This document shows positions 8,385 through 31,030 of a stretch of 64,000 bases of DNA, piece after piece. How positions within the stretch are numbered: position 1 is the first letter of the stretch; each line of letters opens with the position of its first letter. The notes beneath the pieces are model-generated. The model did not search any database. It was not told where the DNA came from and saw only the letters and a list, made by a program, of their open reading frames with translations. Source of the stretch: Trypanosoma brucei (taxonomy: Eukaryota). Where the stretch lies: positions 1,129,949-1,193,948 of the forward strand of contig AE017150.2 in assembly GCA_000002445.1 (NCBI GenBank), read 5' to 3'. The position numbers were made by a program, and so were the translations under genes.

Positions 8385-8503
8385 AATTTGTTTTTCCCTT
8401 CATATTTTTCACTTTGCTTTTCTTTTCTTTCATTTCATATATGTTTTTTCTTTTTGTTATATAGACAAGCTTATTATATTATTATTTCAAGTAATTCAAA
8501 AAG
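8385..8503 (+). promoter_or_regulatory. Polypyrimidine tract and AG acceptor region upstream of the transporter ORF. The same region occurs upstream of 19026 and 29572.
   Basis: A ~75 nt run (tttttcccttcatatttttcactttgcttttcttttctttcatttcatatatgtttttctttttgt) is followed by atagACAAG, 35-40 nt before the ATG. It is conserved in all three units. Confidence 0.55.
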
Positions 8504-9895
8504 ATGGCAATGCTTGGTTTCGAGTCGACAGCTGAATTTTTTGTCTATCTCACCTTCATCTTTTTTGGGATGTCGGTGATGAATGTGACGAATGCCATTT
8601 ACTCAGTCCCTGATTTTTTTTCTGATTATTATAAATTTGTTAAAAATGAGGAAAAAGCGAAACCTGTCAATGCATCGTTCTGGAAGCACATGTTCACGTA
8701 TTATAATGTTGTTGTGTTTACGATGCAAGTGGTTTTGGAGGCTTTTATGCTCACACCATTGGGCCGACGGATTCCTATTAGTTGGCGTCTCATCTTTGGA
8801 CTCACAATTCCTATGGGTGAGATCATTGCAATTTTAGTGATTCCTGCTGTTGGAGGAAGTGAAAATTGTGCAATTGCAACTGTTATGATGGTTGCTTTTG
8901 TTGGTGGTATTTCCAAAACACTTTGTGACTCCAGCAATGCTGCACTTGCGGGACCTTTTCCGACTAAATTCTATGGTGCCATCGTGTGGGGCCTTTCCGT
9001 GTCCGGTATGATTACTTCATTTATGGCTATTGTCATTAAAGCATCGATGAAGGATAGTTTTGAAAGTAAGAGAGTTCAGTCCCAAATATACTTTGGATTA
9101 GTCATGCTTCTTCAGGTGGTTGCATGCGTGCTTCTTGTCCTTCTGAGGAAAAACCCATATGCCATTAAATATGCTGCAGAATTTAGGTATGCTGCGAGGA
9201 AGGATGGAAAGACAGATGATGGCGAAGATGAAAACGATGCAAAGGGAACAGGGCCAGCAGACGAAGATGGGTATCCTGATGAAAAAGAGAATAAGAATGT
9301 ATTGAATGCTGATATTGATCCAGATAAGATGAAGGATACGGATCAGGTTGAAGGCACTACCAACGTTCAGCAAATGCTTGATGCGAGTGTTATGGTTGTG
9401 GTGAAACGTATTTGGCCCATGTTACTTTCATGCTTTTTTGTGTTCTTTGCGACACTTCTTGTATTTCCTGGTGTATTCTTTGCTGTTAAAGATGGATTAA
9501 ATGTTAAAAATGGATGGTACTTTACTATTGTCATTGCCATGTTCAACTTTGGTGATTTCCTTACGAGGCTTCTTCTTCAGTTCAAGCAGCTGCACCTGTC
9601 TCCACGCATGGTTATGATTGGTTCATTTGCACGTGCACTTTTGATAATTCCGCTTTCATTATGTGCAGCTGGTACCATTCCTGGTATATGGCTTCCCTAC
9701 ACCGTTTCTCTCCTTTGGGGTCTTACGAACGGTTACTTTGGTGGTTTAACAATGATTTATGGACCACGTACGGGATCCCTCACCACAGCGGGTCAACGCT
9801 CTCTTGCTGCCATTTCTACAAATGTATCACTACTTTCGGGTCTCTTTGTTGGTGCTATGTTTGCATTGGCTGTTAAGGAGGGACTTCCTGAATAA
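8504..9895 (+). CDS. Equilibrative nucleoside transporter (ENT family), TbNT2-cluster-like purine nucleoside transporter, paralog 1, 463 aa.
   Basis: The N-terminus MAMLGFESTAEFFVYLTFIFFGMSVMNVTNAIYS is characteristic of T. brucei NT/AT ENT proteins. The ORF has ~11 predicted hydrophobic segments. Between the sixth and seventh of these is a large acidic cytoplasmic loop (RKDGKTDDGEDENDAKGTGPADEDGYPDEKENK). The gene alternates in tandem with the oxidoreductase gene. Confidence 0.92.
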   Translation: MAMLGFESTAEFFVYLTFIFFGMSVMNVTNAIYSVPDFFSDYYKFVKNEEKAKPVNASFWKHMFTYYNVVVFTMQVVLEAFMLTPLGRRIPISWRLIFGLTIPMGEIIAILVIPAVGGSENCAIATVMMVAFVGGISKTLCDSSNAALAGPFPTKFYGAIVWGLSVSGMITSFMAIVIKASMKDSFESKRVQSQIYFGLVMLLQVVACVLLVLLRKNPYAIKYAAEFRYAARKDGKTDDGEDENDAKGTGPADEDGYPDEKENKNVLNADIDPDKMKDTDQVEGTTNVQQMLDASVMVVVKRIWPMLLSCFFVFFATLLVFPGVFFAVKDGLNVKNGWYFTIVIAMFNFGDFLTRLLLQFKQLHLSPRMVMIGSFARALLIIPLSLCAAGTIPGIWLPYTVSLLWGLTNGYFGGLTMIYGPRTGSLTTAGQRSLAAISTNVSLLSGLFVGAMFALAVKEGLPE

Positions 9896-12800
9896 ATTCT
9901 CAATAATTGTAAAAATTACAATTAATACAATTTTTTTTTTTAAAAAAGGCTCCATGCTGGTATCAGCTAGGAGTGGTTTTAACGATGAAAATAATAAAAA
10001 AAATAAAATAGGAAAAGATAAGACAAAAAGGGGTTAATTCTAGGAAAGTGAATAATATGACACATGGCAGCAAGCAAGCATATACGTGCATATGTTATGT
10101 AGTTTTGAGGTAAAAGTGACGCAAAGAAAAGTGTTAGTCGGTTACAAACGCATCGCGCAAAGTACGATACGGCGGAGTTCTGCAAGCTTGTACCATGACA
10201 GTATTTCACTATTTTGTTAACTAACATGGATTTCACCTCTAAGATATGGTTTTAAGGGTAAGGGTTGTAAATTGTGAAATTGTATTGACGATCTCACTCA
10301 TTAGTGCAAACCTTTGATACACTTTACTGTTTACTTTTGATGCAACACAAAATTTGTGTGAAAGAAAGAGCTATACTTCAGCTTGTAGCGTTTTCAGTGC
10401 GCTTATTTTCATCACATGTGTGCAAACGAGTAAAAAAATGATGTGAACCCGAAAAGTCTTATTACTTTTCCTTTTATTCCCATGACCGTGCTATGGTGTT
10501 ACGGATATGTGTGTAAGTGAGGAGTGTTGTGTGGATTTGCTTCTATTATTGTTTACTTGCCTTTGGTTGTATACCACACACCTGCTTATGTTTTCCCATA
10601 TGTGTACGCCTGTAGATAACAGTGTGGGAGTTTACTCCGTGACGTTTTCTCACAAATGTCTAGAGGCAAATGATTAAAGTAATTTTTTTGTTTAATGTAT
10701 ATCTGTATATGTTTGTCTGTTTATGTGTATGTGTGTTTGTGTGTACGTATTTGACATGTTCAGCAATATGTTTAGATTATCCAATTATATCTTTTCTTTT
10801 CTATTTTCTTATATTGTTTACTTGTCACTGTTTTACTTTCAGGAAGGTATATAAATTAAGCTGAAGCAACGTTATGTTCATTTGTGTATTAGACACATGA
10901 GTTTATTTCCAAGCAGATGATATATGCGTGAACGCGTGTGTTTAACTTTATAATGTCTTATACTAAAGATGTATCCAAATATTGCCATGCTAATACCTTG
11001 TGAGGCTTATTGTACTTTTGTGTTGTGAAATAGTCAAGTAGTTGCTGTGTAACTTTTGTGTTATTTTTTAGATAATGTGTGTTTTCTTAGTCTAATATCT
11101 TTAATAAATGATTTGACAGCTGCTTGCATGTGAGGGTTTCATTCCTCTTCTTTGCTTAAAAATGTGCAGAGACTGGAATCCTTTATATAAATGAAGTGAA
11201 ATGCATAACTTATAAATTGCATTTCCACTTTCACATATTGTAATATTATTGAGTATCAAAAGGGAAATGATGAATCATGTAATAGGAAGTCATTCACAAC
11301 ATGGTAATAGAGCAATTCATCTTCGAAGCTATAACGGAACAAGCTTTTTATTGTAATGCTTATTTGTGGAATAGCTCATGCTTTATGAATGCTTGAGGAT
11401 GGAGCGTTGTAATATTTTTAAAAGTAATATAAGTAAACTAGCAAACAAATTATCGTTTTTGTTTCTTCCTTCATAATCACTATAAGCTAAGCTATTAGTC
11501 TATTAGCAATAATTAATATGACTACTAGTAGGGCAAAAGACGAGAAATAAGAAATTAATTTATAGGAATGATTTGATAGTTTGAAGGGTGTGTAATTATC
11601 ATGTCTCTTATACTAATGACGGATTATGCTAGAGAGAATGTGATTTGTGAGGTATTTGTGATTCTCTGAAGTGATACAGCGGTGCATGGGAACTCGTCGT
11701 AAGGATAAAAAAAATAAATAATGTGCGGTATGTAATTTTTAAACCTCACATTGATGAGGTTGTGAGGCATAAAATAACTCTTGCCATTTTCCCAACGTGG
11801 CCAACAGTCCAAGAACTAGTGTAGTACTGCAGTAATGATACAGTGATGTTAAATTGAAAGCGAAAAATAAATATGAATGGCGTAAAAAGGGGGAAGGAAG
11901 TAGTGATGGTGGCGTAATCGATTGTTACTGTGTTTCATGACAAATTCTCTACATTCAATGATTCTAGAGGAAACAAGTACGTACCATAGCAGTGGTTACT
12001 GTGTTTCCATAAGGAGTAAGTTATATTTACTGGAAAATGTGGTATCAAGAAATGTTATATGTGAGTAGCAATATACCTCAACACAGAGATGTACGCTCAT
12101 GTAATCACTACACACAAAAAAGTTCTGAAAGTTTTGAACGCGTTGAGCGGATTGATACGTCTCTCCAACCTTGAGTTGAAATGCGCAACCCTTGAGTGTT
12201 GAGTTGGGATACATATTTTTAGATGTCACTAGAGCTTGATGTGTGGAATGAAACTCTAGAGCTCATGCATATGGCTAATGCTTACCGTGGGCAAAACTTG
12301 TCGATGTTGGTACGATGATATGCGATTTGTTGGCAGTGATAGCTTTCAGCGGATTGTATGGTAGGTGGTGTTTTTTTTTCTGCCACAGGCGGCAATGGCA
12401 GTGTTGACTAATTTTTGAATTACTCAGAAGGGAAATTTCTCTGTTTAAGTGATGATCATGTTGAATCGTTGATAAAATCAACGGAATTATCCATAATTAG
12501 TTTTAATTGGAGGAAAATGAAATAGGAGAACTGCCCACGTTGATGTGTTGCGGACAAAGAAAAGTGAGTGGTATGCATATTTTAGAACCCAGTATTTTTC
12601 TTTCTCATCTGATGTGCTTCCCTAATGTTTGGATCTGAGGAATACCTAATGATGATTAATGCGGTTAGAGTTAGGGCATTCTTTTGTGATGCTGAATATT
12701 GTATCTATTGATAACAACAATCGATACGCCATACTCAAACATAAATGAATTCTCACACATAAACGCTGCTTCTGGTATCGCCAACCGTTATGTTCAATAG

Positions 12801-15656
12801 CTCGTTACGTGGAGCATGAGTGGATGTGACAGTGAATGTTCCTTCATCAAAGACAGCTGCGTGATGCTTAACTCAGAATATGTCAATGGTATCGTATTAT
12901 AGCCAAGTTTAAGTTTAATAATTAATAATAGTGATGTGTGTGGGAAAAGTGAGATTGTACCATTGCAGTGGGTGAACCGTTTCGTTTGGGACGTATTGCA
13001 TTCTGCTGTGTGATTAAGCGCCGAGTTTTTCTGCAAATATACGTATGATATTTAGTTGCTGTCGACCCGCCGAATCGGTGTGTGGTTAGTGTAAAGCATT
13101 ATGCGAACATAGGTTAGTAATGCACAGTGTTTAGAAGGCGAATGTGCCATTCAAGTAACCTTGATTTATACGTAACGTTTCTTACCTTTTTGTGGTGTTT
13201 CACTGTGATCATTCCGAGCGATGTAGTTTATGCTGTTAATGTCACTCAAAGCAATCTGATATTTTTTATGATTGTCACTGCAGCATCTCTTTCTACAAGT
13301 TTCTTTACTTTTTTTAAAAAAAGGCATCATTATAAAGCTTGAAAAAGATGTCATAGCTCTTTAACCCTTTACACCCTCTCAAAATATGCCATGAAAAATG
13401 TAAAACTTGCCAGTTGTTTTCACGGTTGCGGCTCTGTAAGAAAGTGAATATTTCACACTTTGGAGAGCTAATTTTGCTACGAAGTGGTTAAGGCCACCTA
13501 TTCGCAGTGGCAGCCCTTGAGGTGAAAACCACATATACTAACGTATCGACAGCAGTAATGAGGACATGTGTCAGCATGGGACGTATGTTTCACTACAGTG
13601 TCACAGAGGTTTTAAAGCACAGTGGGCACGGGAGGTGAATTAGTTGTAGATCTCTTTGTGCCTTAACCTTTCGTGCTATTCTTTTTTTTCTCTCTGGAAC
13701 TGATACAGTCTGGGGAGGCAGTGTGCTCAAGCTTTGCTAAGTTTTTGGAAGCAGGACTCACGACCCATCCCCCACTGTGTAATGTATGATGACCAGATTT
13801 GTTCTGAGGGAGCGTCAAACCAATCGTGTACGATGGGCGTGTAGAACAGGAAGTAAAGGAAGGTGTGTTATTATATGCAAATGCAGATGAAATACTGCTC
13901 ACAACACCTAAAGAAAGCAAAGTCACTCCTGACGGTTTTGATCATTTTATCAGTGTATCACAATCTAATCACCTTTGCTGCTGTAGAAGGCTCATTGCAT
14001 AGTTGTGTGTATTTTGCTTTCAGAGCTTGAGACAACCAGTCACTTACCGACCACTGTGGAGAGTGATCACGATGATGTCGTCGGCTTTCCTGTATGGAAG
14101 GAAGTATCATTTTGCTCTTCTGCTCGCGTAATTGTGTTCCTTTGTGTATCCGTGGAGTAGCGTTGTTATTGAAAAGAGGGATGATGAGTAGAATGGCGAC
14201 TCAACACTTTTTCTTGTACTGAAGAAATACCAAGAGTTTTTTTCAGCAGGACAGACCTGCGGTGGCCATGTGGTTTAGATACCTCAGGGACAACTTCCAT
14301 ATTGCACAAGGAGAACTTCTGCGTCTTGAGGTGGCATGGCGCATGCTAGTGTTGGGATATCTGTACATTGGAATAGCAAGGTCTTCCAGGGAAGGAAGAG
14401 GGATACATAAGCCAGTGAAGGGCTGCACAGGTGCTGTGTCAGGTGTGAAGGTGATAGATGGCTCTAAGGAAGTGTCAGATGTGATTATACTCGGCAAGAG
14501 GTTGCTGCTCAAGGTTTTGATTATATACTTCCCGAGACGATCAAATGTCGCGTAACTTACGTTGGAAGAAAGTTTAGGGGGAGCAATGGGATGAGGGAAG
14601 TCCCCACTGGATTGTTTGGTCGGATATACAACATGATAAGTGGAAGGTTTGTTGAAGAAGAACGCAGGTACACCACATCCAATAGGTGAGAAGGCAGTAA
14701 TGGCCGGGTGCATTTGCTGTGAGTGAAAACTTTAACAATGGATGCTAAGTAGTTAATGTTGAAATGTTTTAAAACGTTAGAGAAAGGAATGACTAAATGG
14801 TTGTAGGTACGTAAATCGTGGGACGCACTAAGGGAAAATGATGTAGTGGTGCGATGGAGCAAGGGACTCGAATACCCAATATATTACAAGAAACGCTACT
14901 GTTGAGTTGGGTGCAGAAACAAGTGAGAGACAAGCTGTTTGGGTAGCTGAAGTATCGACCACTGGGAAAGGTGAAGCGTTGGCAGGAAGGATCATCAAAT
15001 CTCATCCTCATTTCATTTAGTATGACTGAGGAAGCGAGGGAAGGAAAGGAATGGTTGTGAAGGGAGCAAGTAGTGAAAGCAAAATAGTAGAAGCAATTGT
15101 GGCGTCAAATAAGATGTGAAGGGTAGCGGTAGTACAAATAGAAAAGCAAAACCAAGTTAAAAAAATTGGTTGCCGACGTCAAGGAAGCGGGGACAGGTGA
15201 ATAAAATTATGTAATTCGTACCAGTTTAAATGTATTAAAATGAACTCTGATGTGTGTGATTTGCTACTGTTAACTCGGTGAACATCGGAACTGATACGTT
15301 GCTCTGTGCTATTGTAGCAGTGCACTCCAGTGTGGTATCACTGGAACTATAAAACCTTATATTTCTTATGGCGTTGTATCAGTGCTTCCACTATGGCATC
15401 ATTGTGTTAACGTGAGCAGTATATTGTCACGTAGTGGACAACATGTCAACTAGTTTGTTTAAACTGTTGCTCTCTTGACAGTTTGTAGTTCGTATCACTC
15501 TGTTGTTTGCTTTTCTTGTCTTGTTTATTCCCCTGAGATATTACTGGTAAGTCCTCCTTTATCCTAATTTTTGTATTTACGCCGGCTGTTGAAGCGGAAC
15601 CCTTCCAATTATTAGGCACAAAACGGTACATATATATATATTACAAGAAAGCAACA

Positions 15657-16634
15657 GTGTGTAATTTAGAAACCATGACACGCGCCTCGCTTCCTGTTAT
15701 TGATGTTTCGCCCCTATTTGGTGGCGAATCCGCAGAAAAGGAAAGGGTCTCCAAGCAGATTGATAATGCATGCAGGACATGGGGCTTCTTCTACATTGTG
15801 GGACATCCGATTCAGCAGGAGCAGATTGACAAAGTACTTAAGTTAGCTGATACTTTTTTCTCTCTTCCTATGGAGGAGAAGCTCAAATTGGACGTTCGCA
15901 AGGGTAGACTTTATCGTGGTTACACTGCCCCTGGAGTAGAGGAAGCTGATGTAGGGAAGGTTTACACGTACGAGACCTTTACGACGGGATACCATCTTCC
16001 TAAGCACCATCCAGACGTCATGGCAGGCAAACCGCTCCGAGGACCGAATATCCACCCCACTCAAGTGAGGGGATGGATGGAGGGTATGGAAGGTCATTAC
16101 CGCGATATGTGGGCACTTGCGCTTGTCCTCCTGCGCGCTATGGCGCAAGCTATCGGTTTGCAGGAAGATTTCTTCGACTCCAAGTTTATGGATCCCCTTT
16201 GTGAATTGAATATAAAGCACTACGTTCCCTTATCTCAAACGAAAGAAGAAACTACTTTGCTCATTGAGCACAGCGATTTCGGTGTTATGACGTTACTCTA
16301 TCAAGACGCTTCAGGTGGCTTGCAAGTACGTGATAGTTCCGGAGAGCTGATGGATGTGCCACCTGTTGAAGGAAGTTTTGTTGTCAACCTTGGAGACATG
16401 ATGGAGATGTGGACCAATGGCCAATACCGTTCCACAAAGCATCGTGTGGTAGCCACAGACAAGGAACGGTACTCCATGCCTTTCTTTTGCAATCCCAATC
16501 CGAATGTCATCGTCAAGTGCCTCGACAACTGTCACTCGGAAGAGAATCCACCAAGGTACCCTCCAGTGCGGGCTGTTGATTGGGTTTTGAAGCGGTTCGC
16601 GGAGGCATATGGGAAAGATTACTCAAAAATGTAG
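15657..16634 (+). CDS. 2OG/Fe(II) dioxygenase, copy 2, 325 aa. It differs from copy 1 at I227V and I312V.
   Basis: Same ORF as 5133-6110 with the same motifs. Confidence 0.9.
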   Translation: MCNLETMTRASLPVIDVSPLFGGESAEKERVSKQIDNACRTWGFFYIVGHPIQQEQIDKVLKLADTFFSLPMEEKLKLDVRKGRLYRGYTAPGVEEADVGKVYTYETFTTGYHLPKHHPDVMAGKPLRGPNIHPTQVRGWMEGMEGHYRDMWALALVLLRAMAQAIGLQEDFFDSKFMDPLCELNIKHYVPLSQTKEETTLLIEHSDFGVMTLLYQDASGGLQVRDSSGELMDVPPVEGSFVVNLGDMMEMWTNGQYRSTKHRVVATDKERYSMPFFCNPNPNVIVKCLDNCHSEENPPRYPPVRAVDWVLKRFAEAYGKDYSKM

Positions 16635-19025
16635 GAGTGGTTCCTAGTTTGCATTTCTTTTAGCATTTGCTTTATCAAGAATGGTATCAGGCCCTGCAAT
16701 TAGTAGTTGTTTTTCAGACGTGGCTGACTTACATATGCGTAGTATCTGTCGTAATGCAAAAAGTTCTGTGATTTAAAATGTGGGTGAAGACAGTACGGTA
16801 ACGTATCTAGTCAGAATGAATATATTTCACTCACTCTTTATTTTCAATGTAGGGAATTGTTAAAGGGGTAATAATATTTCTTTCACCTTTCCTCTTCCTT
16901 TTTTTTAATTGCCATCTTTGTAAGGGGTGCTGTAAGTCCATCTTTTCTCATACTTTGATATCTTCATCTATTTCCTTATTACATTGAATAATGCATTAAC
17001 ATCTTCATTGCGATGCCAACTGAAGTATTCTGACAAGCAATAGGTGTATGCTATTGTATGTTAGTTTATGCTGCAACAGAGTTCTCCTTGGAAATGCTTG
17101 TCTTTTTTTTTCACTTTGAGGGGGTTCTACAATTGTCTTTCCCCATTCTATTCTAAGGGTTAATTACGCATTAGAAATGCTACCAGTCACTTCAGAGGTA
17201 TTCCTTCTTACACAAGTATTATTTTGATGCGATCTCATGCAAGGAGAATGGAGGTAAATGGAGAATGAAACAACTCACATTCTCCACCCACCCAATGGAG
17301 AGCATACGTTTTACCATGGAAGTCGCGCTTGAAGTATCTCCCCAAGTAGAGCAAACTAATGAGGAATTAGCACCTAAGGGCTGCGTTGTTAAATATTTTG
17401 AAAGAGTGGGGGTTCGTACGTGAAGGATAAGGGATTTTGAGGGTGCTTACTCTTATTGTGTTTTTAATTTTTTTTTTGAAAAGGGGGGTGGTGGCCAATT
17501 TTATTATGTCACCCGACGAATGGAATTGCTTTGTACCACGCTGTTTGTGTTTGTTACATATATTGGTAAGGAATAATGTTTTTTATGTGAATTTCAATGC
17601 GTTTGATGTTTTTTGTCACCGCACTTATGTTGAGTCTGTGCAATTTCTTTTCCCTCCATGCTGAACATACCATTCTCTATTATTTTCTTATCTTTCATTG
17701 TTTCAGCTTTTCAGGGGAAACACATGCATACCCACGAGATGGAATACACTAAACGACACGTAACACTGTGGGAGAATGTTATAAATGCATGCAGTCCAAT
17801 ACTTGAGAAATGTGTATTTTCTACACCTTAACATCAATTTTTTTTTTTGTAAAGGACAAACTCACTGAGTGTTTAGTGACTGCGCTTCTTCAAACTTTTC
17901 TCCCTCAAGGCGTATTATGCAGTTGCAGAGAGTCATCTGTTTTCTGCTCCTTCTCCGCTTGCTAATGATTTGTGTTTATGCGTGTTGCTTCCTTTTTTAT
18001 ATTGTAAGTAATAGAAGACAAAAAAGGGGATATTACATATTACATATTTTATTTTGTATGTTAGCATGGTTGCATAATTTATTCTGCTGTAGAGGCGTGT
18101 GTTATGGATTGTAGTATTTGGAAAAGTTGTTCGACTAAAAGTTATAAAAGCTAACCCTGTGTGTGATGGATTTTTAATTTATATAAACTTGTTTAACTTT
18201 ATATTAGAATATAAATTTATTTATTGTCATTTAAATAGTTCACCCATATGAGAAAACTAAATGAACACATATACGCACGTATATGTATATTTATATTTGC
18301 ATATTTGTTGTTTATGTATATTATATTTGAGTAATGTTGGTAAGGTAAGAAAACGGCTGTGTAATAAATCATTTTTATTTGGTATGCTTTGAGTGCGCGC
18401 GCGTGGGTTCTTTATTTCTATTATTAGAAAAGGAAACTGCAATAATTGTTTCATTATTAAAAGTTCTTCATGACTCTTGTTTTTAAGTTTAGCATTTTGC
18501 TATTACTCAAATCATGTGAATTAAGGGAGGACTCATATCAGTATCATATGATGATATTTGAAACAATTTAGAGACGCCTGATATTACTCAATACTCTAAC
18601 TCTTTTTTTTCCTTTCATATCCATTGCATTTATATTGTGATATGATAAGTTGATTTGTGTTAGCATTCAAATGCAGCATTGTTATTATTAATATTAACTT
18701 CCTTAAAGGAAATTAATTCGAAAGGAATGTTATTGTAAAAGGATTCAAATTGCAAGTAGTTATTCAGATAATGTTAATAATTTATACACAATTTTATATT
18801 TATTGTAGTTGTAGTAGTGTGCGTATTTAAACAAAGGTACCACTAATTTTGTAATTACTCAATAGTTATAATGACACAATTCTATTTCTTGATAATTTGA
18901 GTCCCTGAATTTGTTTTTCCCTTCATATTTTTCACTTTGCTTTTCTTTTCTTTCATTTCATATATGTTTTTCTTTTTGTTATATAGACAAGCTTATTATA
19001 TCACTATTTCAAGTAATTCAAAAAG

Positions 19026-20426
19026 ATGGCAATGCTTGGTTTCGAGTCGACAGCTGAATTTTTTGTCTATCTCACCTTCATCTTTTTTGGGATGTCGGTG
19101 ATGAATGTGACGAATGCTATTTACTCTATTCCTGACTATTTTTCAGTGTATTATCAATTTGTTAAAAATGATGAAAAAGCGAAACCTGTCAATGCATCGT
19201 TCTGGGAGCACATGTTCACGTATTATAATGTTGTTGTGTTTACGATGCAAGTGGTTTTGGAGGCTTTTATGCTAACACCATTGGGCCGACGCATTCCTAT
19301 TAGTTGGCGTCTCATCTTTGGACTCACAATTCCTATGGGTGAGATCATTGCAATTTTAGTGATCCCTGAAGTTGGAGGAAGTGAAGCTGGTGCGATGGCA
19401 ACTGTTATGATAGTTGCTTTTGTTGGTGGTATTTCCAAAACACTTTGTGACTCCAGCAATGCTGCACTTGCGGGACCGTTTCCGACTAAATTCTATGGTG
19501 CCATCGTGTGGGGTCTTGCAGTCTCTGGCCTAATCACTTCATTTATGTCTGTTGTCATCAAAGCAGCGATGGAATACAGCTTCAAAAGCAGACGAGTTCA
19601 GTCCCAAATATACTTTGGATTAGTCATGCTTCTTCAGGTGGTTGCATGCGTGCTTCTTGTCCTTCTGAGGAAAAACCCATATGCCATTAAATATGCTGCA
19701 GAATTTAGGTATGCTGCGAGGAAGGATGGAAAGACAGATGATGGCGAAGATGAAAACGATGCAAAGGGAACAGGGCCAGCAGACGAAGATGGGTATCCTG
19801 ATGAAAAAGAGAATAAGAATGTATTGAATGCTGATATTGATCCAGATAAGATGAAGGATACGGATCAGGTTGAAGGCACTACCAACGCTCAGCAAATGCT
19901 TGATGCGAGTGTTATGGTTGTGGTGAAACGTATTTGGCCCATGTTACTTTCATGCTTCTTTGTGTTCTTTGCGACACTTCTCATCTTCCCTGGTGTATTC
20001 TTTGCTGTTAAAGATAAAACAACGGTAAAAAACTTTTGGTATTATACAATTATTGTTGCCATGTTCAACTTGGGTGATTTCTTGTCTCGTCTGGTGCTGC
20101 AGTTCAAGCGGTTGCATGTGTCTCCGCGCATGGTTATGATTGGTTCATTTGCACGTGCGTTGCTGATAATTCCTCTTGCCCTTTGCGTTCCTGGTACCAT
20201 TCCTGGTGTATGGCTTCCCTACACCGTTTCTCTCCTTTGGGGTCTCACAAATGGTTACTTTGGTGGCCTTTCAATGATTTATGGACCACGTACGGGATCC
20301 CTCACCACAGCGGGTCAACGCTCTCTTGCTGCTATTTGCATTAATGTGGCTCTTTTACTCGGTCTCTTTGCTGGTGCTATGTTTGCATTGGCTGTTAAGG
20401 AGGGACTTCCGAAGGAAAAAAAGTAG
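19026..20426 (+). CDS. ENT nucleoside transporter, paralog 2, 466 aa.
   Basis: Same architecture as 8504-9895. It has many scattered substitutions relative to paralog 1, e.g. YSIPDYFSVYYQF and PEVGGSEAGAMATVMIV. Its C-terminus, ...GLPKEKK, is distinct. Confidence 0.92.
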   Translation: MAMLGFESTAEFFVYLTFIFFGMSVMNVTNAIYSIPDYFSVYYQFVKNDEKAKPVNASFWEHMFTYYNVVVFTMQVVLEAFMLTPLGRRIPISWRLIFGLTIPMGEIIAILVIPEVGGSEAGAMATVMIVAFVGGISKTLCDSSNAALAGPFPTKFYGAIVWGLAVSGLITSFMSVVIKAAMEYSFKSRRVQSQIYFGLVMLLQVVACVLLVLLRKNPYAIKYAAEFRYAARKDGKTDDGEDENDAKGTGPADEDGYPDEKENKNVLNADIDPDKMKDTDQVEGTTNAQQMLDASVMVVVKRIWPMLLSCFFVFFATLLIFPGVFFAVKDKTTVKNFWYYTIIVAMFNLGDFLSRLVLQFKRLHVSPRMVMIGSFARALLIIPLALCVPGTIPGVWLPYTVSLLWGLTNGYFGGLSMIYGPRTGSLTTAGQRSLAAICINVALLLGLFAGAMFALAVKEGLPKEKK

Positions 20427-23400
20427 GAGTTTTTAAAACATTAAATAATGTCTAAACTTTTTTTAAATTAATAAAATAAAAAAATAAACTCCATGCTGGT
20501 ATCAGCTAGGAGTGGTTTTAACGATGAAAATAATAAAAAAAATAAAATAGGAAAAGATAAGACAAAAAGGGGTTAATTCTAGGAAAGTGAATAATATGAC
20601 TCATGGCAGCAAGCAAGCATATACGTGCATATGTTATGTAGTTTTGAGGTAAAAGTGACGCAAAGAAAAGTGTTAGTCGGTTACAAACGCATCGCGCAAA
20701 GTACGATACGGCGGAGTTCTGCAAGCTTGTACCATGACAGTATTTCACTATTTTGTTAACTAACATGGATTTCACCTCTAAGATATGGTTTTAAGGGTAA
20801 GGGTTGTAAATTGTGAAATTGTATTGACGATCTCACTCATTAGTGCAAACCTTTGATACACTTTACTGTTTACTTTTGATGCAACACAAAATTTGTGTGA
20901 AAGAAAGAGCTATACTTCAGCTTGTAGCGTTTTCAGTGCGCTTATTTTCATCACATGTGTGCAAACGAGTAAAAAAATGATGTGAACCCGAAAAGTCTTA
21001 TTACTTTTCCTTTTATTCCCATGACCGTGCTATGGTGTTACGGATATGTGTGTAAGTGAGGAGTGTTGTGTGGATTTGCTTCTATTATTGTTTACTTGCC
21101 TTTGGTTGTATACCACACACCTGCTTATGTTTTCCCATATGTGTACGCCTGTAGATAACAGTGTGGGAGTTTACTCCGTGACGTTTTCTCACAAATGTCT
21201 AGAGGCAAATGATTAAAGTAATTTTTTTGTTTAATGTATATCTGTATATGTTTGTCTGTTTATGTGTATGTGTGTTTGTGTGTACGTATTTGACATGTTC
21301 AGCAATATGTTTAGATTATCCAATTATATCTTTTCTTTTCTATTTTCTTATATTGTTTACTTGTCACTGTTTTACTTTCAGGAAGGTATATAAATTAAGC
21401 TGAAGCAACGTTATGTTCATTTGTGTATTAGACACATGAGTTTATTTCCAAGCAGATGATATATGCGTGAACGCGTGTGTTTAACTTTATAATGTCTTAT
21501 ACTAAAGATGTATCCAAATATTGCCATGCTAATACCTTGTGAGGCTTATTGTACTTTTGTGTTGTGAAATAGTCAAGTAGTTGCTGTGTAACTTTTGTGT
21601 TATTTTTTAGATAATGTGTGTTTTCTTAGTCTAATATCTTTAATAAATGATTTGACAGCTGCTTGCATGTGAGGGTTTCATTCCTCTTCTTTGCTTAAAA
21701 ATGTGCAGAGACTGGAATCCTTTATATAAATGAAGTGAAATGCATAACTTATAAATTGCATTTCCACTTTCACATATTGTAATATTATTGAGTATCAAAA
21801 GGGAAATGATGAATCATGTAATAGGAAGTCATTCACAACATGGTAATAGAGCAATTCATCTTCGAAGCTATAACGGAACAAGCTTTTTATTGTAATGCTT
21901 ATTTGTGGAATAGCTCATGCTTTATGAATGCTTGAGGATGGAGCGTTGTAATATTTTTAAAAGTAATATAAGTAAACTAGCAAACAAATTATCGTTTTTG
22001 TTTCTTCCTTCATAATCACTATAAGCTAAGCTATTAGTCTATTAGCAATAATTAATATGACTACTAGTAGGGCAAAAGACGAGAAATAAGAAATTAATTT
22101 ATAGGAATGATTTGATAGTTTGAAGGGTGTGTAATTATCATGTCTCTTATACTAATGACGGATTATGCTAGAGAGAATGTGATTTGTGAGGTATTTGTGA
22201 TTCTCTGAAGTGATACAGCGGTGCATGGGAACTCGTCGTAAGGATAAAAAAAATAAATAATGTGCGGTATGTAATTTTTAAACCTCACATTGATGAGGTT
22301 GTGAGGCATAAAATAACTCTTGCCATTTTCCCAACGTGGCCAACAGTCCAAGAACTAGTGTAGTACTGCAGTAATGATACAGTGATGTTAAATTGAAAGC
22401 GAAAAATAAATATGAATGGCGTAAAAAGGGGGAAGGAAGTAGTGATGGTGGCGTAATCGATTGTTACTGTGTTTCATGACAAATTCTCTACATTCAATGA
22501 TTCTAGAGGAAACAAGTACGTACCATAGCAGTGGTTACTGTGTTTCCATAAGGAGTAAGTTATATTTACTGGAAAATGTGGTATTAAGAAATGTTATATG
22601 TGAGTAGCAATATACCTCAACACAGAGATGTACGCTCATGTAATCACTACACACAAAAAAGTTCTGAAAGTTTTGAACGCGTTGAGCGGATTGATGCGTC
22701 TCTCCAACCTTGAGTTGAAATGCGCAACCCTTGAGTGTTGAGTTGGGATACATATTTTTAGATGTCACTAGAGCTTGATGTGTGGAATGAAACTCTAGAG
22801 CTCATGCATATGGCTAATGCTTACCGTGGGCAAAACTTGTCGATGTTGGTACGATGATATGCGATTTGTTGGCAGTGATAGCTTTCAGCGGATTGTATGG
22901 TAGGTGGTGTTTTTTTTTCTGCCACAGGCGGCAATGGCAGTGTTGACTAATTTTTGAATTACTCAGAAGGGAAATTTCTCTGTTTAAGTGATGATCATGT
23001 TGAATCGTTGATAAAATCAACGGAATTATCCATAAGTTAGTTTTAATTGGAGGAAAATGAAATAGGAGAACTGCCCACGTTGATGTGTTGCGGACAAAGA
23101 AAAGTGAGTGGTATGCATATTTTAGAACCCAGTATTTTTCTTTCTCATCTGATGTGCTTCCCTAATGTTTGGATCTGAGGAATACCTAATGATGATTAAT
23201 GCGGTTAGAGTTAGGGCATTCTTTTGTGATGCTGAATATTGTATCTATTGATAACAACAATCGATACGCCATACTCAAACATAAATGAATTCTCACACAT
23301 AAACGCTGCTTCTGGTATCGCCAACCGTTATGTTCAATAGCTCGTTACGTGGAGCATGAGTGGATGTGACAGTGAATGTTCCTTCATCAAAGACAGCTGC

Positions 23401-26201
23401 GTGATGCTTAACTCAGAATATGTCAATGGTATCGTATTATAGCCAAGTTTAAGTTTAATAATTAATAATAGTGATGTGTGTGGGAAAAGTGAGATTGTAC
23501 CATTGCAGTGGGTGAACCGTTTCGTTTGGGACGTATTGCATTCTGCTGTGTGATTAAGCGCCGAGTTTTTCTGCAAATATACGTATGATATTTAGTTGCT
23601 GTCGACCCGCCGAATCGGTGTGTGGTTAGTGTAAAGCATTATGCGAACATAGGTTAGTAATGCACAGTGTTTAGAAGGCGAATGTGCCATTCAAGTAACC
23701 TTGATTTATACGTAACGTTTCTTACTTTTTTGTGGTGTTTCACTGTGATCATTCCGAGCGATGTAGTTTATGCTGTTAATGTCACTCAAAGCAATCTGAT
23801 ATTTTTTATGATTGTCACTGCAGCATCTCTTTCTACAAGTTTCTTTACTTTTTTTAAAAAAAAAGGCATCATTATAGAGCTTGAAAAAGATGTCATAGCT
23901 CTTTAACCCTTTACACCCTCTCAAAATATGCCATGAAAAATGTAAAACTTGCCAGTTGTTTTCACGGTTGCGGCTCTGTAAGAAAGTGAATATTTCACAC
24001 TTTGGAGAGCTAATTTTGCTACGAAGTGGTTAAGGCCACCTATTCGCAGTGGCAGCCCTTGAGGTGAAAACCACATATACTAACGTATCGACAGCAGTAA
24101 TGAGGACATGTGTCAGCATGGGACGTATGTTTCACTACAGTGTCACAGAGGTTTTAAAGCACAGTGGGCACGGGAGGTGAATTAGTTGTAGATCTCTTTG
24201 TGCCTTAACCTTTCGTGCTATTCTTTTTTTTCTCTCTGGAACTGATACAGTCTGGGGAGGCAGTGTGCTCAAGCTTCGCTAAGTTTTTGGAAGCAGGACT
24301 CACGACCCATCCCCCACTGTGTAATGTATGATGACCAGATTTGTTCTGAGGGAGCGTCAAACCAATCGTGTACGATGGGCGTGTAGAACAGGAAGTAAAG
24401 GAAGGTGTGTTATTATATGCAAATGCAGATGAAATACTGCTCACAACACCTAAAGAAAGCAAAGTCACTCCTGACGGTTTTGATCATTTTATCAGTGTAT
24501 CACAATCTAATCACCTTTGCTGCTGTAGAAGGCTCATTGCATAGTTGTGTGTATTTTGCTTTCAGAGCTTGAGACAACCAGTCACTTACCGACCACTGTG
24601 GAGAGTGATCACGATGATGTCGTCGGCTTTCCTGTATGGAAGGAAGTATCATTTTGCTCTTCTGCTCGCGTAATTGTGTTCCTTTGTGTATCCGTGGAGT
24701 AGCGTTGTTATTGAAAAGAGGGATGATGAGTAGAATGGCGACTCAACACTTTTTCTTGTACTGAAGAAATACCAAGAGTTTTTTTCAGCAGGACAGACCT
24801 GCGGTGGCCATGTGGTTTAGATACCTCAGGGACAACTTCCATATTGCACAAGGAGAACTTCTGCGTCTTGAGGTGACATGGCGCATGCTAGTGTTGGGAT
24901 ATCTGTACATTGGAATAGCAAGGTCTTCCAAGGAAGGAAGAGGGATACATAAGCCAGTGAAGGGCTGCACAGGTGCTGTGTCAGGTGTGAAGGTGATAGA
25001 TGGCTCTAAGGAAGTGTCAGATGTGATTATACTCGGCAAGAGGTTGCTGCTCAAGGTTTTGATTATATACTTCCCGAGACGATCAAATGTCGCGTAACTT
25101 ACGTTGGAAGAAAGTTTAGGGGGAGCAATGGGATGAGGGAAGTCCCCACTGGATTGTTTGGTCGGATATACAACATGATAAGTGGAAGGTTTGTTGAAGA
25201 AGAACGCAGGTACACCACATCCAATAGGTGAGAAGGCAGTAATGGCCGGGTGCATTTGCTGTGAGTGAAAACTTTAACAATGGATGCTAAGTAGTTAATG
25301 TTGAAATGTTTTAAAACGTTAGAGAAAGGAATGACTAAATGGTTGTAGGTACGTAAATCGTGGGACGCACTAAGGGAAAATGATGTAGTGGTGCGATGGA
25401 GCAAGGGACTCGAATACCCAATATATTACAAGAAACGCTACTGTTGAGTTGGGTGCAGAAACAAGTGAGAGACAAGCTGTTTGGGTAGCTGAAGTATCGA
25501 CCACTGGGAAAGGTGAAGCGTTGGCAGGAAGGATCATCAAATCTCATCCTCATTTCATTTAGTATGACTGAGGAAGCGAGGGAAGGAAAGGAATGGTTGT
25601 GAAGGGAGCAAGTAGTGAAAGCAAAATAGTAGAAGCAATTGTGGCGTCAAATAAGATGTGAAGGGTAGCGTTAGTACAAATAGAAAAGCAAAACCAAGTT
25701 AAAAAAATTGGTTGCCGACGTCAAGGAAGCGGGGACAGGTGAATAAAATTATGTAATTCGTACCAGTTTAAATGTATTAAAATGAACTCTGATGTGTGTG
25801 ATTTGCTACTGTTAACTTGCTGAACATCGGAACTGATACGTTGCTCTGTGCTATTGTAGCAGTGCACTCCAGTGTGGTATCACTGGAACTATAAAACCTT
25901 ATATTTCTTAGGGTTCTGTATCAGTGCTTCCACTATGGCATCATTGTGTTAACGTGAGCAGTATATTGTCGCGTAGTGAACAACATGTCAACTAGTTCGT
26001 TTAAACTGTTGCTCTCTTGACAGTTTGTAGTTCGTATCACTCTGTTGTGTGCTTTTTTTTGTCTTGTTTATTCCCCTGAGATATTACTGGTAAGTCCTCC
26101 TTTATCCTAATTTTTGTATTTACGCCGGCTGTTGAAGCGGAACCCTTCCAATTATTAGGCACAAAACGGTACATATATATATATATTACAAGAAAGCAAC
26201 A

Positions 26202-27179
26202 GTGTGTAATTTAGAAACCATGACACGCGCCTCGCTTCCCGTTATTGATGTTTCGCCGCTATTTGGTGGCGAATCCGCAGAAAAGGAAAGGGTCTCCAAG
26301 CAGATTGATAATGCATGCAGGACATGGGGCTTCTTCTACATTGTGGGACATCCGATTCAGCAGGAGCAGATTGACAAAGTACTTAAGTTAGCTGATACTT
26401 TTTTCTCTCTTCCTATGGAGGAGAAGCTCAAATTGGACGTTCGCAAGGGTAGACTTTATCGTGGTTACACTGCCCCTGGAGTAGAGGAAGCTGATGTAGG
26501 GAAGGTTTACACGTACGAGACCTTTACGACGGGATACCATCTTCCTAAGCACCATCCAGACGTCATGGCAGGCAAACCGCTCCGAGGACCGAATATCCAC
26601 CCCACTCAAGTGAGGGGATGGATGGAGGGTATGGAAGGTCATTACCGCGATATGTGGGCACTTGCGCTTGTCCTCCTGCGCGCTATGGCGCAAGCTATCG
26701 GTTTGCAGGAAGATTTCTTCGACTCCAAGTTTATGGATCCCCTTTGTGAATTGAATATAAAGCACTACGTTCCCTTATCTCAAACGAAAGAAGAAACTAC
26801 TTTGCTCATTGAGCACAGCGATTTCGGTGTTATGACGTTACTCTATCAAGACGCTTCAGGTGGCTTGCAAGTACGTGATAGTTCCGGAGAGCTGATGGAT
26901 GTGCCACCTGTTGAAGGAAGTTTTGTTGTCAACCTTGGAGACATGATGGAGATGTGGACCAATGGCCAATACCGTTCCACAAAGCATCGTGTGGTAGCCA
27001 CAGGCAAGGAACGGTACTCCATGCCTTTCTTTTGCAATCCCAATCCGAATGTCATCGTCAAGTGCCTCGACAACTGTCACTCGGAAGAGAATCCACCAAG
27101 GTACCCTCCAGTGCGGGCTGTTGATTGGATTTTGAAGCGGTTCGCGGAGGCATATGGGAAAGATTACTCAAAAATGTAG
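26202..27179 (+). CDS. 2OG/Fe(II) dioxygenase, copy 3, 325 aa. It carries V227 and I312, plus a unique D271G (gac to ggc at 27003-27005).
   Basis: Same ORF as 5133-6110. The substitution pattern is a mosaic of copies 1 and 2. Confidence 0.9.
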   Translation: MCNLETMTRASLPVIDVSPLFGGESAEKERVSKQIDNACRTWGFFYIVGHPIQQEQIDKVLKLADTFFSLPMEEKLKLDVRKGRLYRGYTAPGVEEADVGKVYTYETFTTGYHLPKHHPDVMAGKPLRGPNIHPTQVRGWMEGMEGHYRDMWALALVLLRAMAQAIGLQEDFFDSKFMDPLCELNIKHYVPLSQTKEETTLLIEHSDFGVMTLLYQDASGGLQVRDSSGELMDVPPVEGSFVVNLGDMMEMWTNGQYRSTKHRVVATGKERYSMPFFCNPNPNVIVKCLDNCHSEENPPRYPPVRAVDWILKRFAEAYGKDYSKM

Positions 27180-29571
27180 GAGTGGTTCCTAGTTTGCATT
27201 TCTTTTAGCATTTGCTTTATCAAGAATGGTATCAGGCCCTGCAATTAGTAGTTGTTTTTCAGATATGAATGATTTACATATGCGTAGTATCTGTCGTAAT
27301 GCAAAAAGTTCTGTGATTTAAAATGTGGGTGAAGACAGTACGGTAACGTATCTAGTCAGAATGAATATATTTCACTTACTCTTTATTTTCAATGTAGGGA
27401 ATTGTTAAAGGGGTAATAATATTTCTTTCACCTTTCCTCTTCCTTTTTTTTAATTGACATCTTTGTAATGAATGCTGTAAGTCCATCTTTTCTCATACTT
27501 TGATATCTTCATCTATTTCCTTATTACATTGAATAATGCATTAACATCTTCATTGCGATGACAACTGAAGTATTCTGACAAGCAATAGGTGTATGCTATT
27601 GTATGTTAGTTTATGCTGCAACAGAGTTCTCCTTGGAAATGCTTGTCTTTTTTTTTCACTTTGAGGGGGTTCTACAATTGTCTTTCCCCATTCTATTCTA
27701 AGGGTTAATTACGCATTAGAAATGCTACCAGTCACTTCAGAGGTATTCCTTCTTACACAAGTATTATTTTGATGCGATCTCATGCAAGGAGAATGGAGGT
27801 AAATGGAGAATGAAACAACTCACATTCTCCACCCACCCAATGGAGAGCATACGTTTTACCATGGAAGTCGCGCTTGAAGTATCTCCCCAAGTAGAGCAAA
27901 CTAATGAGGAATTAGCACCTAAGGGCTGCGTTGTTAAATATTTTGAAAGAGTGGGGGTTCGTACGTGAAGGATAAGGGATTTTGAGGGTGCTTACTCTTA
28001 TTGTGTTTTTAATTTTTTTTTTGAAAAGGGGGGTGGTGGCCAATTTTATTATGTCACCCGACGAATGGAATTGCTTTGTACCACGCTGTTTGTGTTTGTT
28101 ACATATATTGGTAAGGAATAATGTTTTTTATGTGAATTTCAATGCGTTTGATGTTTTTTGCCACCGCACTTATGTTGAGTCTGTGCAATTTCTTTTCCCT
28201 CCATGCTGAACATACCATTCTCTATTATTTTCTTATCTTTCATTGTTTCAGCTTTTCAGGGGAAACACATGCATACCCACGAGATGGAATACACTAAACG
28301 ACACGTAACACTGTGGGAGAATGTTATAAATGCATGCAGTCCAATACTTGAGAAATGTGTATTTTCTACACCTTAACATCAATTTTTTTTTTTGTAAAGG
28401 ACAAACTCACTGAGTGTTTAGTGACTGCGCTTCTTCAAACTTTTCTCCCTCAAGGCGTATTATGCAGTTGCAGAGAGTCATCTGTTTTCTGCTCCTTCTC
28501 CGCTTGCTAATGATTTGTGTTTATGCGTGTTGCTTCCTTTTTTATATTGTAAGTAATAGAAGACAAAAAAGGGGATATTACATATTACATATTTTATTTT
28601 GTATGTTAGCATGGTTGCATAATTTATTCTGCTGTAGAGGCGTGTGTTATGGATTGTAGTATTTGGAGAAGTTGTTCGACTTAAAGTTATAAAAGCTAAC
28701 CCTGTGTGTGATGGATTGTTAATTTATATAAACTTGTTTAACTTTACATTAGAATATAAATTTATTTATTGTCATTTAAATAGTTCACCAATATGAGAAA
28801 ACTAAATGAACACGTATATGCACGTATATGTATATTTATATTTGCATATTTGTTGTTTATGTATATTATATCTGAGTAATGTTGGTAAGGTAAGAAAACG
28901 GCTGTGTAATAAATCATTTTTATTTGGTATGCTTTGAGTGCGCGCGCGTGGGTTCATTAGTTCTATTATTAGAAAAGGAAACTGCAATAATTGTTTCATT
29001 TTTAAAAGTTCTTCATGACTCTTGTTTTTAAGTTTAGCATTTTGCTATTACTCAAATCATGTGAATTAAGGGAGGACTCATATCAGTATCATATGATGAT
29101 ATTTGAAACAATTTAGAGACGCCTGATATTACTCAATACTCTAACTCTTTTTTTTTCCTTTCATATCCATTGCATTTATATTGTGATATGATAAGTTGAT
29201 TTGTGTTAGCATTCAAATGCAGCATTGTTATTATTAATATTAACTTCCTTAAAGGAAATTAATTCGAAAGGAATGTTATTGTAAAAGGATTCAAATTGCA
29301 AGTAGTTATTCAGATAATGTTAATAATTTATACACAATTTTATATTTATTGTAGTTGTAGTAGTGTGCGTATTTAAACAAAGGTACCACTAATTTTGTAA
29401 TTACTAAAAAGTTATAATGACACAATTCTATTTCTTGATAATTTGAGTCCCTGAATTTGTTTTTCCCTTCATATTTTTCACTTTGCTTTTCTTTTCTTTC
29501 ATTTCATATATGTTTTTCTTTTTGTTATATAGACAAGCTTATTATATCACTATTTCAAGTAATTCAAAAAG

Positions 29572-30960
29572 ATGGCAATGCTTGGTTTCGAGTCGACAGC
29601 TGAATTTTTTGTCTATCTCACCTTCATCTTTTTTGGGATGTCGGTGATGAATGTGACGAATGCCATTTACTCCAATTATAATTTTTTTTCAGAGTATTAT
29701 AAGTTTGTTAAAAAGCAGGAAAAAGCCGAACCTGAGAATGAATCGTTCTGGAAGCACATGTTCACGTATTATAATGTTGTTGTGTTTACGATGCAAGTGG
29801 TTTTGGAGGCTTTTATGCTAACACCATTGGGCCGACGCATTCCTATTAGTTGGCGTCTCATCTTTGGACTCACTATTCCCATGGTAGAAATCATCGTTAT
29901 TTTAGTGATCCCTGCTGTTGGAGGAAGTGAAAATGGTGCAATTGCAACTATGATGATGGTTGCTTTTGTTGGTGGTATTTCCAAAACACTTTGTGACTCC
30001 AGCAATGCTGCACTTGCGGGACCTTTTCCGACTAAATTCTATGGTGCCATCGTGTGGGGACTTGCCATATCCGGACTGATGACCTCATTTTTGGCTATTG
30101 TTATACAAGCATCGATGGACAGCAGTTTTACAAGTAAAAATACCCAATCCCAAATATACTTTGGATTAGTCATGCTTCTTCAGGTGGTTGCATGCGTGCT
30201 TCTTGTCCTTCTGAGGAAAAACCCATATGCCATTAAATATGCTGCAGAATTTAGGTATGCTGCGAGGAAGGATGGAGTAACTGGTGATCGCGCAGATGGT
30301 GAATTTGATGCAAAGGGAACAGGGCCAGCAGACGAGAATAGATATCCTGATGAAAAAGAGAATAAGAATGTATTGAATGCTGATATTGATCCAGATGATA
30401 TGAGGGATACAGATCAGGTTGAAGGCACTACCAACGCTCAGCAAATGCTTGATGCGAGTGTTATGGTTGTGGTGAAACGCATTTGGCCTATGTTGGTCGC
30501 TTGCTTCTTTGTGTTCTTTGCGACACTTCTGGTGTTCCCTGGTGTATTTATAGCGGCGAAGACAGGCGATACTAGTGGTTGGTACTTTACTGTTGTCGTT
30601 GCCATGTTCAACTTGGGTGATTTCTTGTCTCGTCTGGTGCTGCAGTTCAAGCAATTGCATGTGTCTCCGCGCATGGTTATGATTGGTTCATTTGCACGTG
30701 CGTTGCTGATAATTCCACTTTCGCTATGTGCTGCAGGAACCGTTACCGGTGTATGGCTTCCTTATATTGTTTCTCTCCTTTGGGGTCTTACGAATGGTTA
30801 CTTTGGTGGCCTTTCAATGATCTATGGACCACGTACGGGATCCCTCACCACAGCGGGTCAACGCTCTCTTGCTGCTATTTGCATTAATGTGGCTCTTCTT
30901 ATGGGACTTTTTGTTGGTGCTATGTTTGCATTGGCTGTTAAGGAGGGACTTCCTAAATAA
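29572..30960 (+). CDS. ENT nucleoside transporter, paralog 3, 462 aa. This is the most divergent copy, with a different large loop: RKDGVTGDRADGEFDAKGTGPADENRYPDE.
   Basis: It shares the N-terminus and the TM framework. Its extracellular loop 1 (YSNYNFFSEYYKFVKKQEKAEPENESF) is distinct, as is the TM7-8 region (AAKTGDTSGWYFT). Its 3' flank diverges from that of the other units. Confidence 0.9.
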   Translation: MAMLGFESTAEFFVYLTFIFFGMSVMNVTNAIYSNYNFFSEYYKFVKKQEKAEPENESFWKHMFTYYNVVVFTMQVVLEAFMLTPLGRRIPISWRLIFGLTIPMVEIIVILVIPAVGGSENGAIATMMMVAFVGGISKTLCDSSNAALAGPFPTKFYGAIVWGLAISGLMTSFLAIVIQASMDSSFTSKNTQSQIYFGLVMLLQVVACVLLVLLRKNPYAIKYAAEFRYAARKDGVTGDRADGEFDAKGTGPADENRYPDEKENKNVLNADIDPDDMRDTDQVEGTTNAQQMLDASVMVVVKRIWPMLVACFFVFFATLLVFPGVFIAAKTGDTSGWYFTVVVAMFNLGDFLSRLVLQFKQLHVSPRMVMIGSFARALLIIPLSLCAAGTVTGVWLPYIVSLLWGLTNGYFGGLSMIYGPRTGSLTTAGQRSLAAICINVALLMGLFVGAMFALAVKEGLPK

Positions 30961-31030
30961 ATGCTCAAAAATTGTAAATAAACCATTTAATGTCGATCTT
31001 TTAATAAAATGAAAAATGAACCCCATGCTG

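Follow-up and report, generated by a model that had tools for sequence, protein, structure and literature searches.

Patchwork transporter genes between homogenised flanks in the P1-type nucleoside transporter array of Trypanosoma brucei chromosome 2

The stretch of 64,000 nucleotides analysed here (the window) belongs to chromosome 2 of Trypanosoma brucei brucei TREU927 and covers the distal half of the array of P1-type transporters of the equilibrative nucleoside transporter (ENT) family, TbNT2-7, in which the transporter coding sequences are mosaics whereas the DNA around them is nearly uniform. Window positions 1-36112 are occupied by three and a half copies of a tandem unit of about 10.5 kb; each full unit has a 2-oxoglutarate (2OG)-Fe(II) oxygenase gene and then a transporter gene of 462-466 aa (PF01733). 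The window contains three of these transporter genes, all intact open reading frames (ORFs) on the plus strand and all well above the PF01733 cut-off of 29.8 bits: P1 (8504-9895, 463 aa, 107.7 bits), P2 (19026-20426, 466 aa, 111.4 bits) and P3 (29572-30960, 462 aa, 107.7 bits), which is the last of the array. Their products exactly match the TREU927 proteins XP_951752, XP_951754 and XP_951756, encoded on a 1.19 Mb contig, and by accession order they are the fourth, fifth and sixth of six genes annotated as “adenosine transporter 2”. By its place in the array, P1 should be Tb927.2.6240. The names TbNT2-7 reportedly come from Sanchez et al. 2002 (J Biol Chem), and we take P1 to be TbNT5, P2 to be TbNT7 and P3 to be TbNT6.

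The three proteins are 87-90% identical. In an AlphaFold2 model of P1 (pLDDT 84, pTM 0.85) there are eleven long helices, with a large, disordered loop between transmembrane helices (TM) 6 and 7 (residues 216-295). Its best matches in the PDB are structures of hENT1 (8tzi, 6ob7 and 6ob6; TM-score 0.86-0.88 on the target, rmsd about 3 Å), followed by PfENT1; a PDB search with the single sequence gave no match, and hENT1 was reached only with a profile. The substrate-site motif of TM8, FN.GDF..R, aligns with FNIFDWLGR of hENT1, and across 28 kinetoplastid ENTs its residues G350, D351 and F352 are invariant and R355 nearly so. The hENT1 equivalents of this Asp/Arg pair are presumably D341 and R345.

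The contrast between coding sequence and flanks is large. In pairwise comparisons the 2.39 kb spacer between oxidoreductase and transporter (6111-8503, 16635-19025 and 27180-29571, plus strand) is about 1.0% diverged, and the oxidoreductase coding sequences 0.4-0.7%, whereas the transporter coding sequences differ by 9.1-11.8%, with a synonymous divergence (dS) of 0.25-0.32. The flanks are thus about 25-fold less diverged than synonymous sites, which indicates much more recent homogenisation in the spacers than in the coding cores. The homogenised 5’ flank extends 92 nt into the gene, through the N-terminus and TM1, which are the same in all copies (8504-8595, 19026-19117 and 29572-29663, plus strand), and ends at extracellular loop 1. 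On the other side, homogeneity returns in units 1 and 2 about 90-100 nt past the stop codon, and the flanks there are 100% identical. P3 is followed by a sequence of its own (30961-31875, plus strand), which has no alignment with the 3’ flanks of P1 and P2 and sets this gene physically apart. In trypanosomes the level of an mRNA is controlled by its 3’ untranslated region (UTR), so that regulation of P3 may differ from that of P1 and P2; one array study found a stage difference of 8.4-fold for Tb927.2.6320, versus about 20-fold for its neighbours (PMC2771046). Window positions 1-317 lie downstream of the third transporter gene of the array, in its 3’ flank, and are only 84.5% identical to the P1 and P2 equivalents, so that at least three types of 3’ flank occur along the array.

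Within the coding sequences, affinities between the copies change from segment to segment. The first-pass annotation had described P3 as matching P1 in some segments and P2 in others, and all the motifs that it quoted are present as described in the protein alignment. P1 and P3 have in common PAVGGSEN.AIAT, ATLLVFPG, SLCAAGT and QFKQLH; P2 and P3 have in common NLGDFLSRLVLQFK, HVSP and FGGLSMIYGP...AAICINVALL; and P3 alone has its loop 1, its variant of the large loop and TGDTSGWYFT. The codon alignment has 212 variable nucleotide sites, at which the odd one out is P3 in 87 cases, P1 in 58 and P2 in 52, with all three copies differing at the other 15. The 197 informative sites fall into 81 runs, versus 128.9 +/- 6.5 expected under permutation (p<5e-5); the differences are therefore not randomly distributed. 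The longest runs (24 sites for P1=P2 and 12 for P2=P3) are both significant as well (p<5e-5 each). In a 3SEQ-like walk test, P2 was significant as the recombinant with p<=1e-4, and P3 with p of 1.5e-4 to 9e-4. With three sequences only, every site pattern amounts to a change on one branch, and a region-specific acceleration in one lineage would be an alternative reading of such runs; nor can the recombinant copy be named from three sequences alone.

The same clustering is found where the proteins do not differ. At purely synonymous sites (66 sites, in codons with the same amino acid in all copies) we counted 23 runs versus 44.1 +/- 3.7 expected (p<5e-5), and in bins of 30 codons dS varies along the transporter gene between 0 and about 1.5. 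Since codons with an unchanged amino acid keep the block structure and dS itself varies, the blocks reflect different genealogies rather than selection on amino acids. The pairwise homoplasy index (PHI) calculated on eight coding sequences (P1-P3, the three genes of T. b. gambiense DAL972 and the two of T. b. equiperdum) was 0.225 versus a permuted mean of 0.377 (p<=5e-4), and a set of six sequences gave the same significance (p<=5e-4).

A GENECONV-like scan with global permutation located the significant tracts. The longest, between P1 (9072-9435) and P2 (19594-19957), takes up alignment columns 569-935 (367 nt, p=1e-4) and covers the start of TM6, the large intracellular loop and part of TM7; the pair has one mismatch within it and 35 to P3. 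Two further tracts join P2 and P3: one from TM8 to TM9 (columns 1033-1151, 119 nt; 20055-20173 in P2 and 30598-30716 in P3), with two mismatches within the pair and 21 to P1 (its halves p=1e-4 and 0.003), and one from TM10 to TM11 (columns 1228-1332, 105 nt; 20250-20354 in P2 and 30793-30897 in P3), with one mismatch within the pair and 14 to P1 (p=4e-4). All tract coordinates are on the plus strand. For P1=P3 the scan gave no significant tract, the best candidate being 24 nt over four variable sites (p=0.43); the residue-by-residue matches of P1 and P3 pointed out in the first-pass annotation do hold, but they do not amount to a demonstrable tract. Where P1 and P3 agree against P2, the residues of P2 are common to other array members, and its closest relative there is the NT2-type gene of gambiense, the first gene at that locus.

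Comparison with other subspecies shows which copy is the patchwork. The arrays of T. b. gambiense DAL972 and T. b. equiperdum were compared as DNA, and copies 1-3 of TREU927 as proteins. In 90-nt windows, P2 is P1-like at columns 1-360 and 586-945, NT2-type at columns 361-540 and 1216-1305 (up to 100% identity), and P3-like at columns 1036-1170 and 1261-1395. P2, with its alternating P1-like, NT2-like and P3-like segments, is thus the clearest mosaic. P3 is 96-100% identical in every 90-nt window to its orthologues in gambiense and equiperdum (Tbg3 and Teq2), which indicates that its patchwork is older than the split of the subspecies. P3 is indeed a mosaic, as first noted, but with these outside sequences it can no longer be taken as the chief one, and we rejected it as “the” recombinant.

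The two NT6-type orthologues also provide a recent event. Of the 29 sites that distinguish Tbg3 from Teq2, 28 are packed into 66 nt, each of them matching the NT2-type copy, and the other ~1,320 nt contain just one. The replaced segment is the extracellular loop 1 cassette of P3 (nt 109-174 of the gene; 29680-29745, plus strand), which in T. b. equiperdum is exactly substituted by NT2-type sequence: a textbook recent conversion tract. Similarly, NT2 has one large-loop cassette in TREU927 and another in gambiense, where it is of the form found in P1, P2 and the second TREU927 gene. The number of genes also differs between assemblies. Six copies are annotated in TREU927 and three in DAL972 (PMC2854126), and at the loci that we compared there are three transporter genes in DAL972 and two in the T. 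b. equiperdum assembly. The middle gambiense gene (FN554965, locus positions 10001-11406) has an NT3-type N-terminus, an NT4-type large loop and an NT6-type C-terminal part; it is frameshifted near codon 290 and flagged as low quality, and is either a pseudogene or the product of a sequencing or assembly error. The first gene of T. b. equiperdum (CM010673) is NT2-like, with NT3/NT4-type patches in TM3-TM5. The presence of just two genes in this assembly may mean that unequal crossing-over has truly shortened the array, or that repeats were collapsed.

We mapped the variable residues onto a topology that combines the modelled helices with the established ENT orientation (N-terminus inside, TM1-2 loop outside, TM6-7 loop inside), with which a conserved N-x-S sequon in loop 1 agrees. 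Variable positions are concentrated in extracellular loops (26 of 54), versus 13 of 113 in intracellular segments and 43 of 296 in TM helices (Fisher p about 1e-7). The hot spots are loop 1 (43%), TM5 (32%), the TM5-6 loop (50%), the TM7-8 loop (78%), TM8 (43%) and the TM9-10 loop (57%), while TM1 and TM2 are invariant. The first-pass annotation had rightly named loop 1 and the TM5-6 and TM7-8 loops as variable; TM4, which it also listed, is average (5 of 30 positions, 17%), and the enriched TM5, TM8 and TM9-10 loop were absent from its list. It had connected the variable regions with substrate selectivity, which they may influence. Suggestive in this respect are residues 349, 354 and 357 of TM8, where P1 is unlike P2 and P3: they stand beside the conserved motif and may bear on selectivity.

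Diversifying change, which had been proposed together with conversion, finds no support at this resolution. By the Nei-Gojobori method, the ratio of nonsynonymous to synonymous divergence (dN/dS, omega) is 0.23-0.30 over the whole coding sequence, 0.38-0.41 in extracellular loops, 0.16-0.44 in intracellular segments and 0.17-0.22 in TM helices, and values above 1 occur in none of the 30-codon bins or topological classes. Synonymous divergence, too, is highest in the variable loops (dS 0.38-0.76), which are thus old segments rather than fast-evolving ones.

Taken together, these results very probably reflect homologous recombination between misaligned units, which has homogenised the flanks and shuffled patches among the transporter coding sequences. 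Segmental gene conversion, as first proposed, accounts for the clustered site patterns, the blocks at synonymous sites, the pairwise tracts, the switching nearest relatives and the recent tract in an orthologue. Under this model, recombination between misaligned repeat units would have homogenised the non-coding spacers and the oxidoreductase genes almost completely, and inside the transporter coding sequences it would have carried patches, from tens of bases to a few hundred in length, from one copy to another, leaving each gene a patchwork of segments of very different ages. The central coding regions have likely stayed divergent for two reasons: full homogenisation would erase functionally distinct transporters, and mismatches in diverged DNA would limit the extension of heteroduplexes. 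The pathway would be RAD51-type repair limited by mismatch repair. Unequal crossing-over would, in addition, alter copy number and create chimeric genes in other strains.

Several points weigh against this reading or narrow it. PHI was not significant for P1, P2, P3 and the NT2-type gambiense gene (p=0.43), a set in which informative sites are few and incompatibility is high everywhere. As the first three TREU927 copies were compared as proteins, the donors of some segments are known just at the protein level. The C-terminal third of P1 has no close relative among the compared sequences (69-90% identity). Copy numbers taken from draft assemblies may be under-counted through repeat collapse. 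Finally, omega below 1 everywhere fits purifying selection acting on old, distinct cassettes, and is not proof of selection that preserves the cores.

Among the other explanations, reciprocal unequal crossing-over alone, without non-reciprocal conversion, is the one that survives best, and even so we consider it improbable as the sole origin of the chimeras. Copy number does vary between assemblies, and the middle gambiense gene does resemble a fusion of NT3, NT4 and NT6 types; a single crossover, however, leaves one junction, and what we observe are short internal patches with sequence of a different affinity on either side. The clearest of them is the patch in T. b. equiperdum, replaced in a gene that otherwise differs at a single site, which is the signature of conversion or, equivalently, of a closely spaced double exchange. 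Misassembly is also a natural concern, because reads from near-identical 10.5 kb repeats could be mis-joined: flanks with 99-100% identity make such repeats hard to assemble, and the middle gambiense gene is itself of low quality and frameshifted. Nevertheless, we regard an artefactual origin of the mosaics as very unlikely: the tracts (27-367 nt) are bounded on both sides within the gene and would each fit inside a single Sanger read, none of the three ORFs is disrupted, the patchwork of P3 recurs at 96-100% identity in two independent assemblies from other subspecies, and the divergent cores are precisely the parts that are easily assembled. Blocks produced without any recombination, by lineage- and region-specific selection or by convergent amino acid change, would agree with the concentration of amino acid variation in extracellular loops (48%), TM5 and TM8, but this explanation is effectively refuted by the block structure at codons with unchanged amino acids, by the range of dS along the gene and by nearest relatives of P2 that switch, at up to 100% identity, among P1, the NT2 type and P3.

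The rest of the window comprises the other parts of the repeat unit and the region beyond the array. The oxidoreductase (2OG-Fe(II)/iron-ascorbate type, PF14226 and PF03171) is encoded on the plus strand at 5133-6110 in unit 1 and at 15657-16634 and 26202-27179 in units 2 and 3, with 99.3-99.6% DNA identity among copies. Its mechanically called ORF begins with GTG and has 325 aa, while the annotated products of other subspecies have 319 aa; translation probably begins at an ATG six codons further on (MTRAS...), at positions 5151, 15675 and 26220. A partial fourth unit (31876-36112, plus strand) is 99.5-99.7% identical to 10467-14706 and 21006-25248. The array stops in the middle of this unit, about 950 bp before the expected start of the next oxidoreductase, and the ORF found after its end (36854-37774, 306 aa) has no Pfam match. 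The 5’ half of unit 1 (421-4650) is about 8% diverged from those of units 2-4 (10471-14706, 21010-25248 and 31876-36112), which are 99.5-100% identical to one another. About 450-500 bp of units 2-4 are missing from unit 1 (position 3065, versus 13110-13561 in unit 2); we inspected this ~450-bp indel for a mobile element and recognised none. There are no tRNA genes in the window. About 8 kb past the end of the transporter array, and on the opposite strand, begins an array of variant surface glycoprotein (VSG) sequences: seven minus-strand ORFs of 213-520 aa with VSG domains (PF13206 VSG_B, PF00913, PF10659) between 44464 and 60735, several of them fragments. This array is probably the start of the subtelomere. 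The sign of the GC skew flips around 38-42 kb.

If recombination between misaligned units did shape the genes in this way, a further and more speculative reading can be considered. The divergent cores could be more than remnants of incomplete homogenisation, namely cassettes maintained by selection (extracellular loop 1; TM5 with the TM5-6 loop; the TM7-8 loop with TM8; the TM9-10 loop) and reshuffled by conversion between copies and strains to yield combinatorial transporter variants. We find this doubtful, though less so than any of the alternatives weighed above. Were it true, the variants might differ in substrate range, affinity or surface epitopes, and the formation of VSG mosaics would have a counterpart among nutrient transporters, located beside a subtelomeric VSG array. 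Irrespective of this, patch exchange together with changes in copy number means that the set of P1-type transporter isoforms varies between strains and subspecies. Kinetic values are published for TbNT5, TbNT6 and TbNT7 (PMC9960827, Table 10), and P1-type transporters are the favoured uptake route for new nucleoside drugs against trypanosomiasis, their many copies making resistance by loss unlikely (PMC10208901). Isoform variation thus matters when kinetics or drug uptake measured in a reference strain are extrapolated to field isolates.

Mosaicism by gene conversion in this array is real, ordinary and already known. Jackson et al. 2010 (PLoS Negl Trop Dis, PMC2854126) reported recombination at this same locus (Table 2, row 12bi, “Adenosine transporter”, Tb927.2.6150-6320), with six brucei and three gambiense copies, three brucei-specific isoforms, a PHI of 0.289 versus a mean of 0.415 (p<0.001), and ten breakpoints by likelihood ratio test (LRT) and at least 14 by GARD over 1407 sites; the same table has the interleaved oxidoreductase as row 12bii. 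Our results are not different in kind. What they add is the position of the tracts in copies 4-6, the check that the blocks persist at synonymous sites, a comparison of flank and coding divergence at this array, the placing of the variable residues on the membrane topology, and the discrete tract of T. b. equiperdum.

The pattern also agrees with what Jackson 2007 (BMC Evol Biol, PMC1855330) described for tandem arrays of T. brucei in general, in a main text that makes no mention of this array. Such arrays show mosaics and concerted evolution with gene conversion, coding sequences are often more variable than UTRs while non-coding sequence can stay invariant, the phylogenetic signals of coding sequences and UTRs conflict, and divergence is greater for copies that distinct non-coding sequence separates from the others. 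In the present array P3 is the copy with such a flank, and the locus is a clear and already documented case of flanks that evolve in concert while the coding cores between them stay old and divergent. The mosaic VSG genes of T. brucei are another parallel: the organism is the same, and in both systems short, homology-driven patches are transferred between paralogs. VSG mosaics, however, are formed during infection, under immune selection and often from pseudogenes, whereas the members of the transporter array are intact housekeeping genes with omega below 1, and their patches mostly predate the split of the subspecies.

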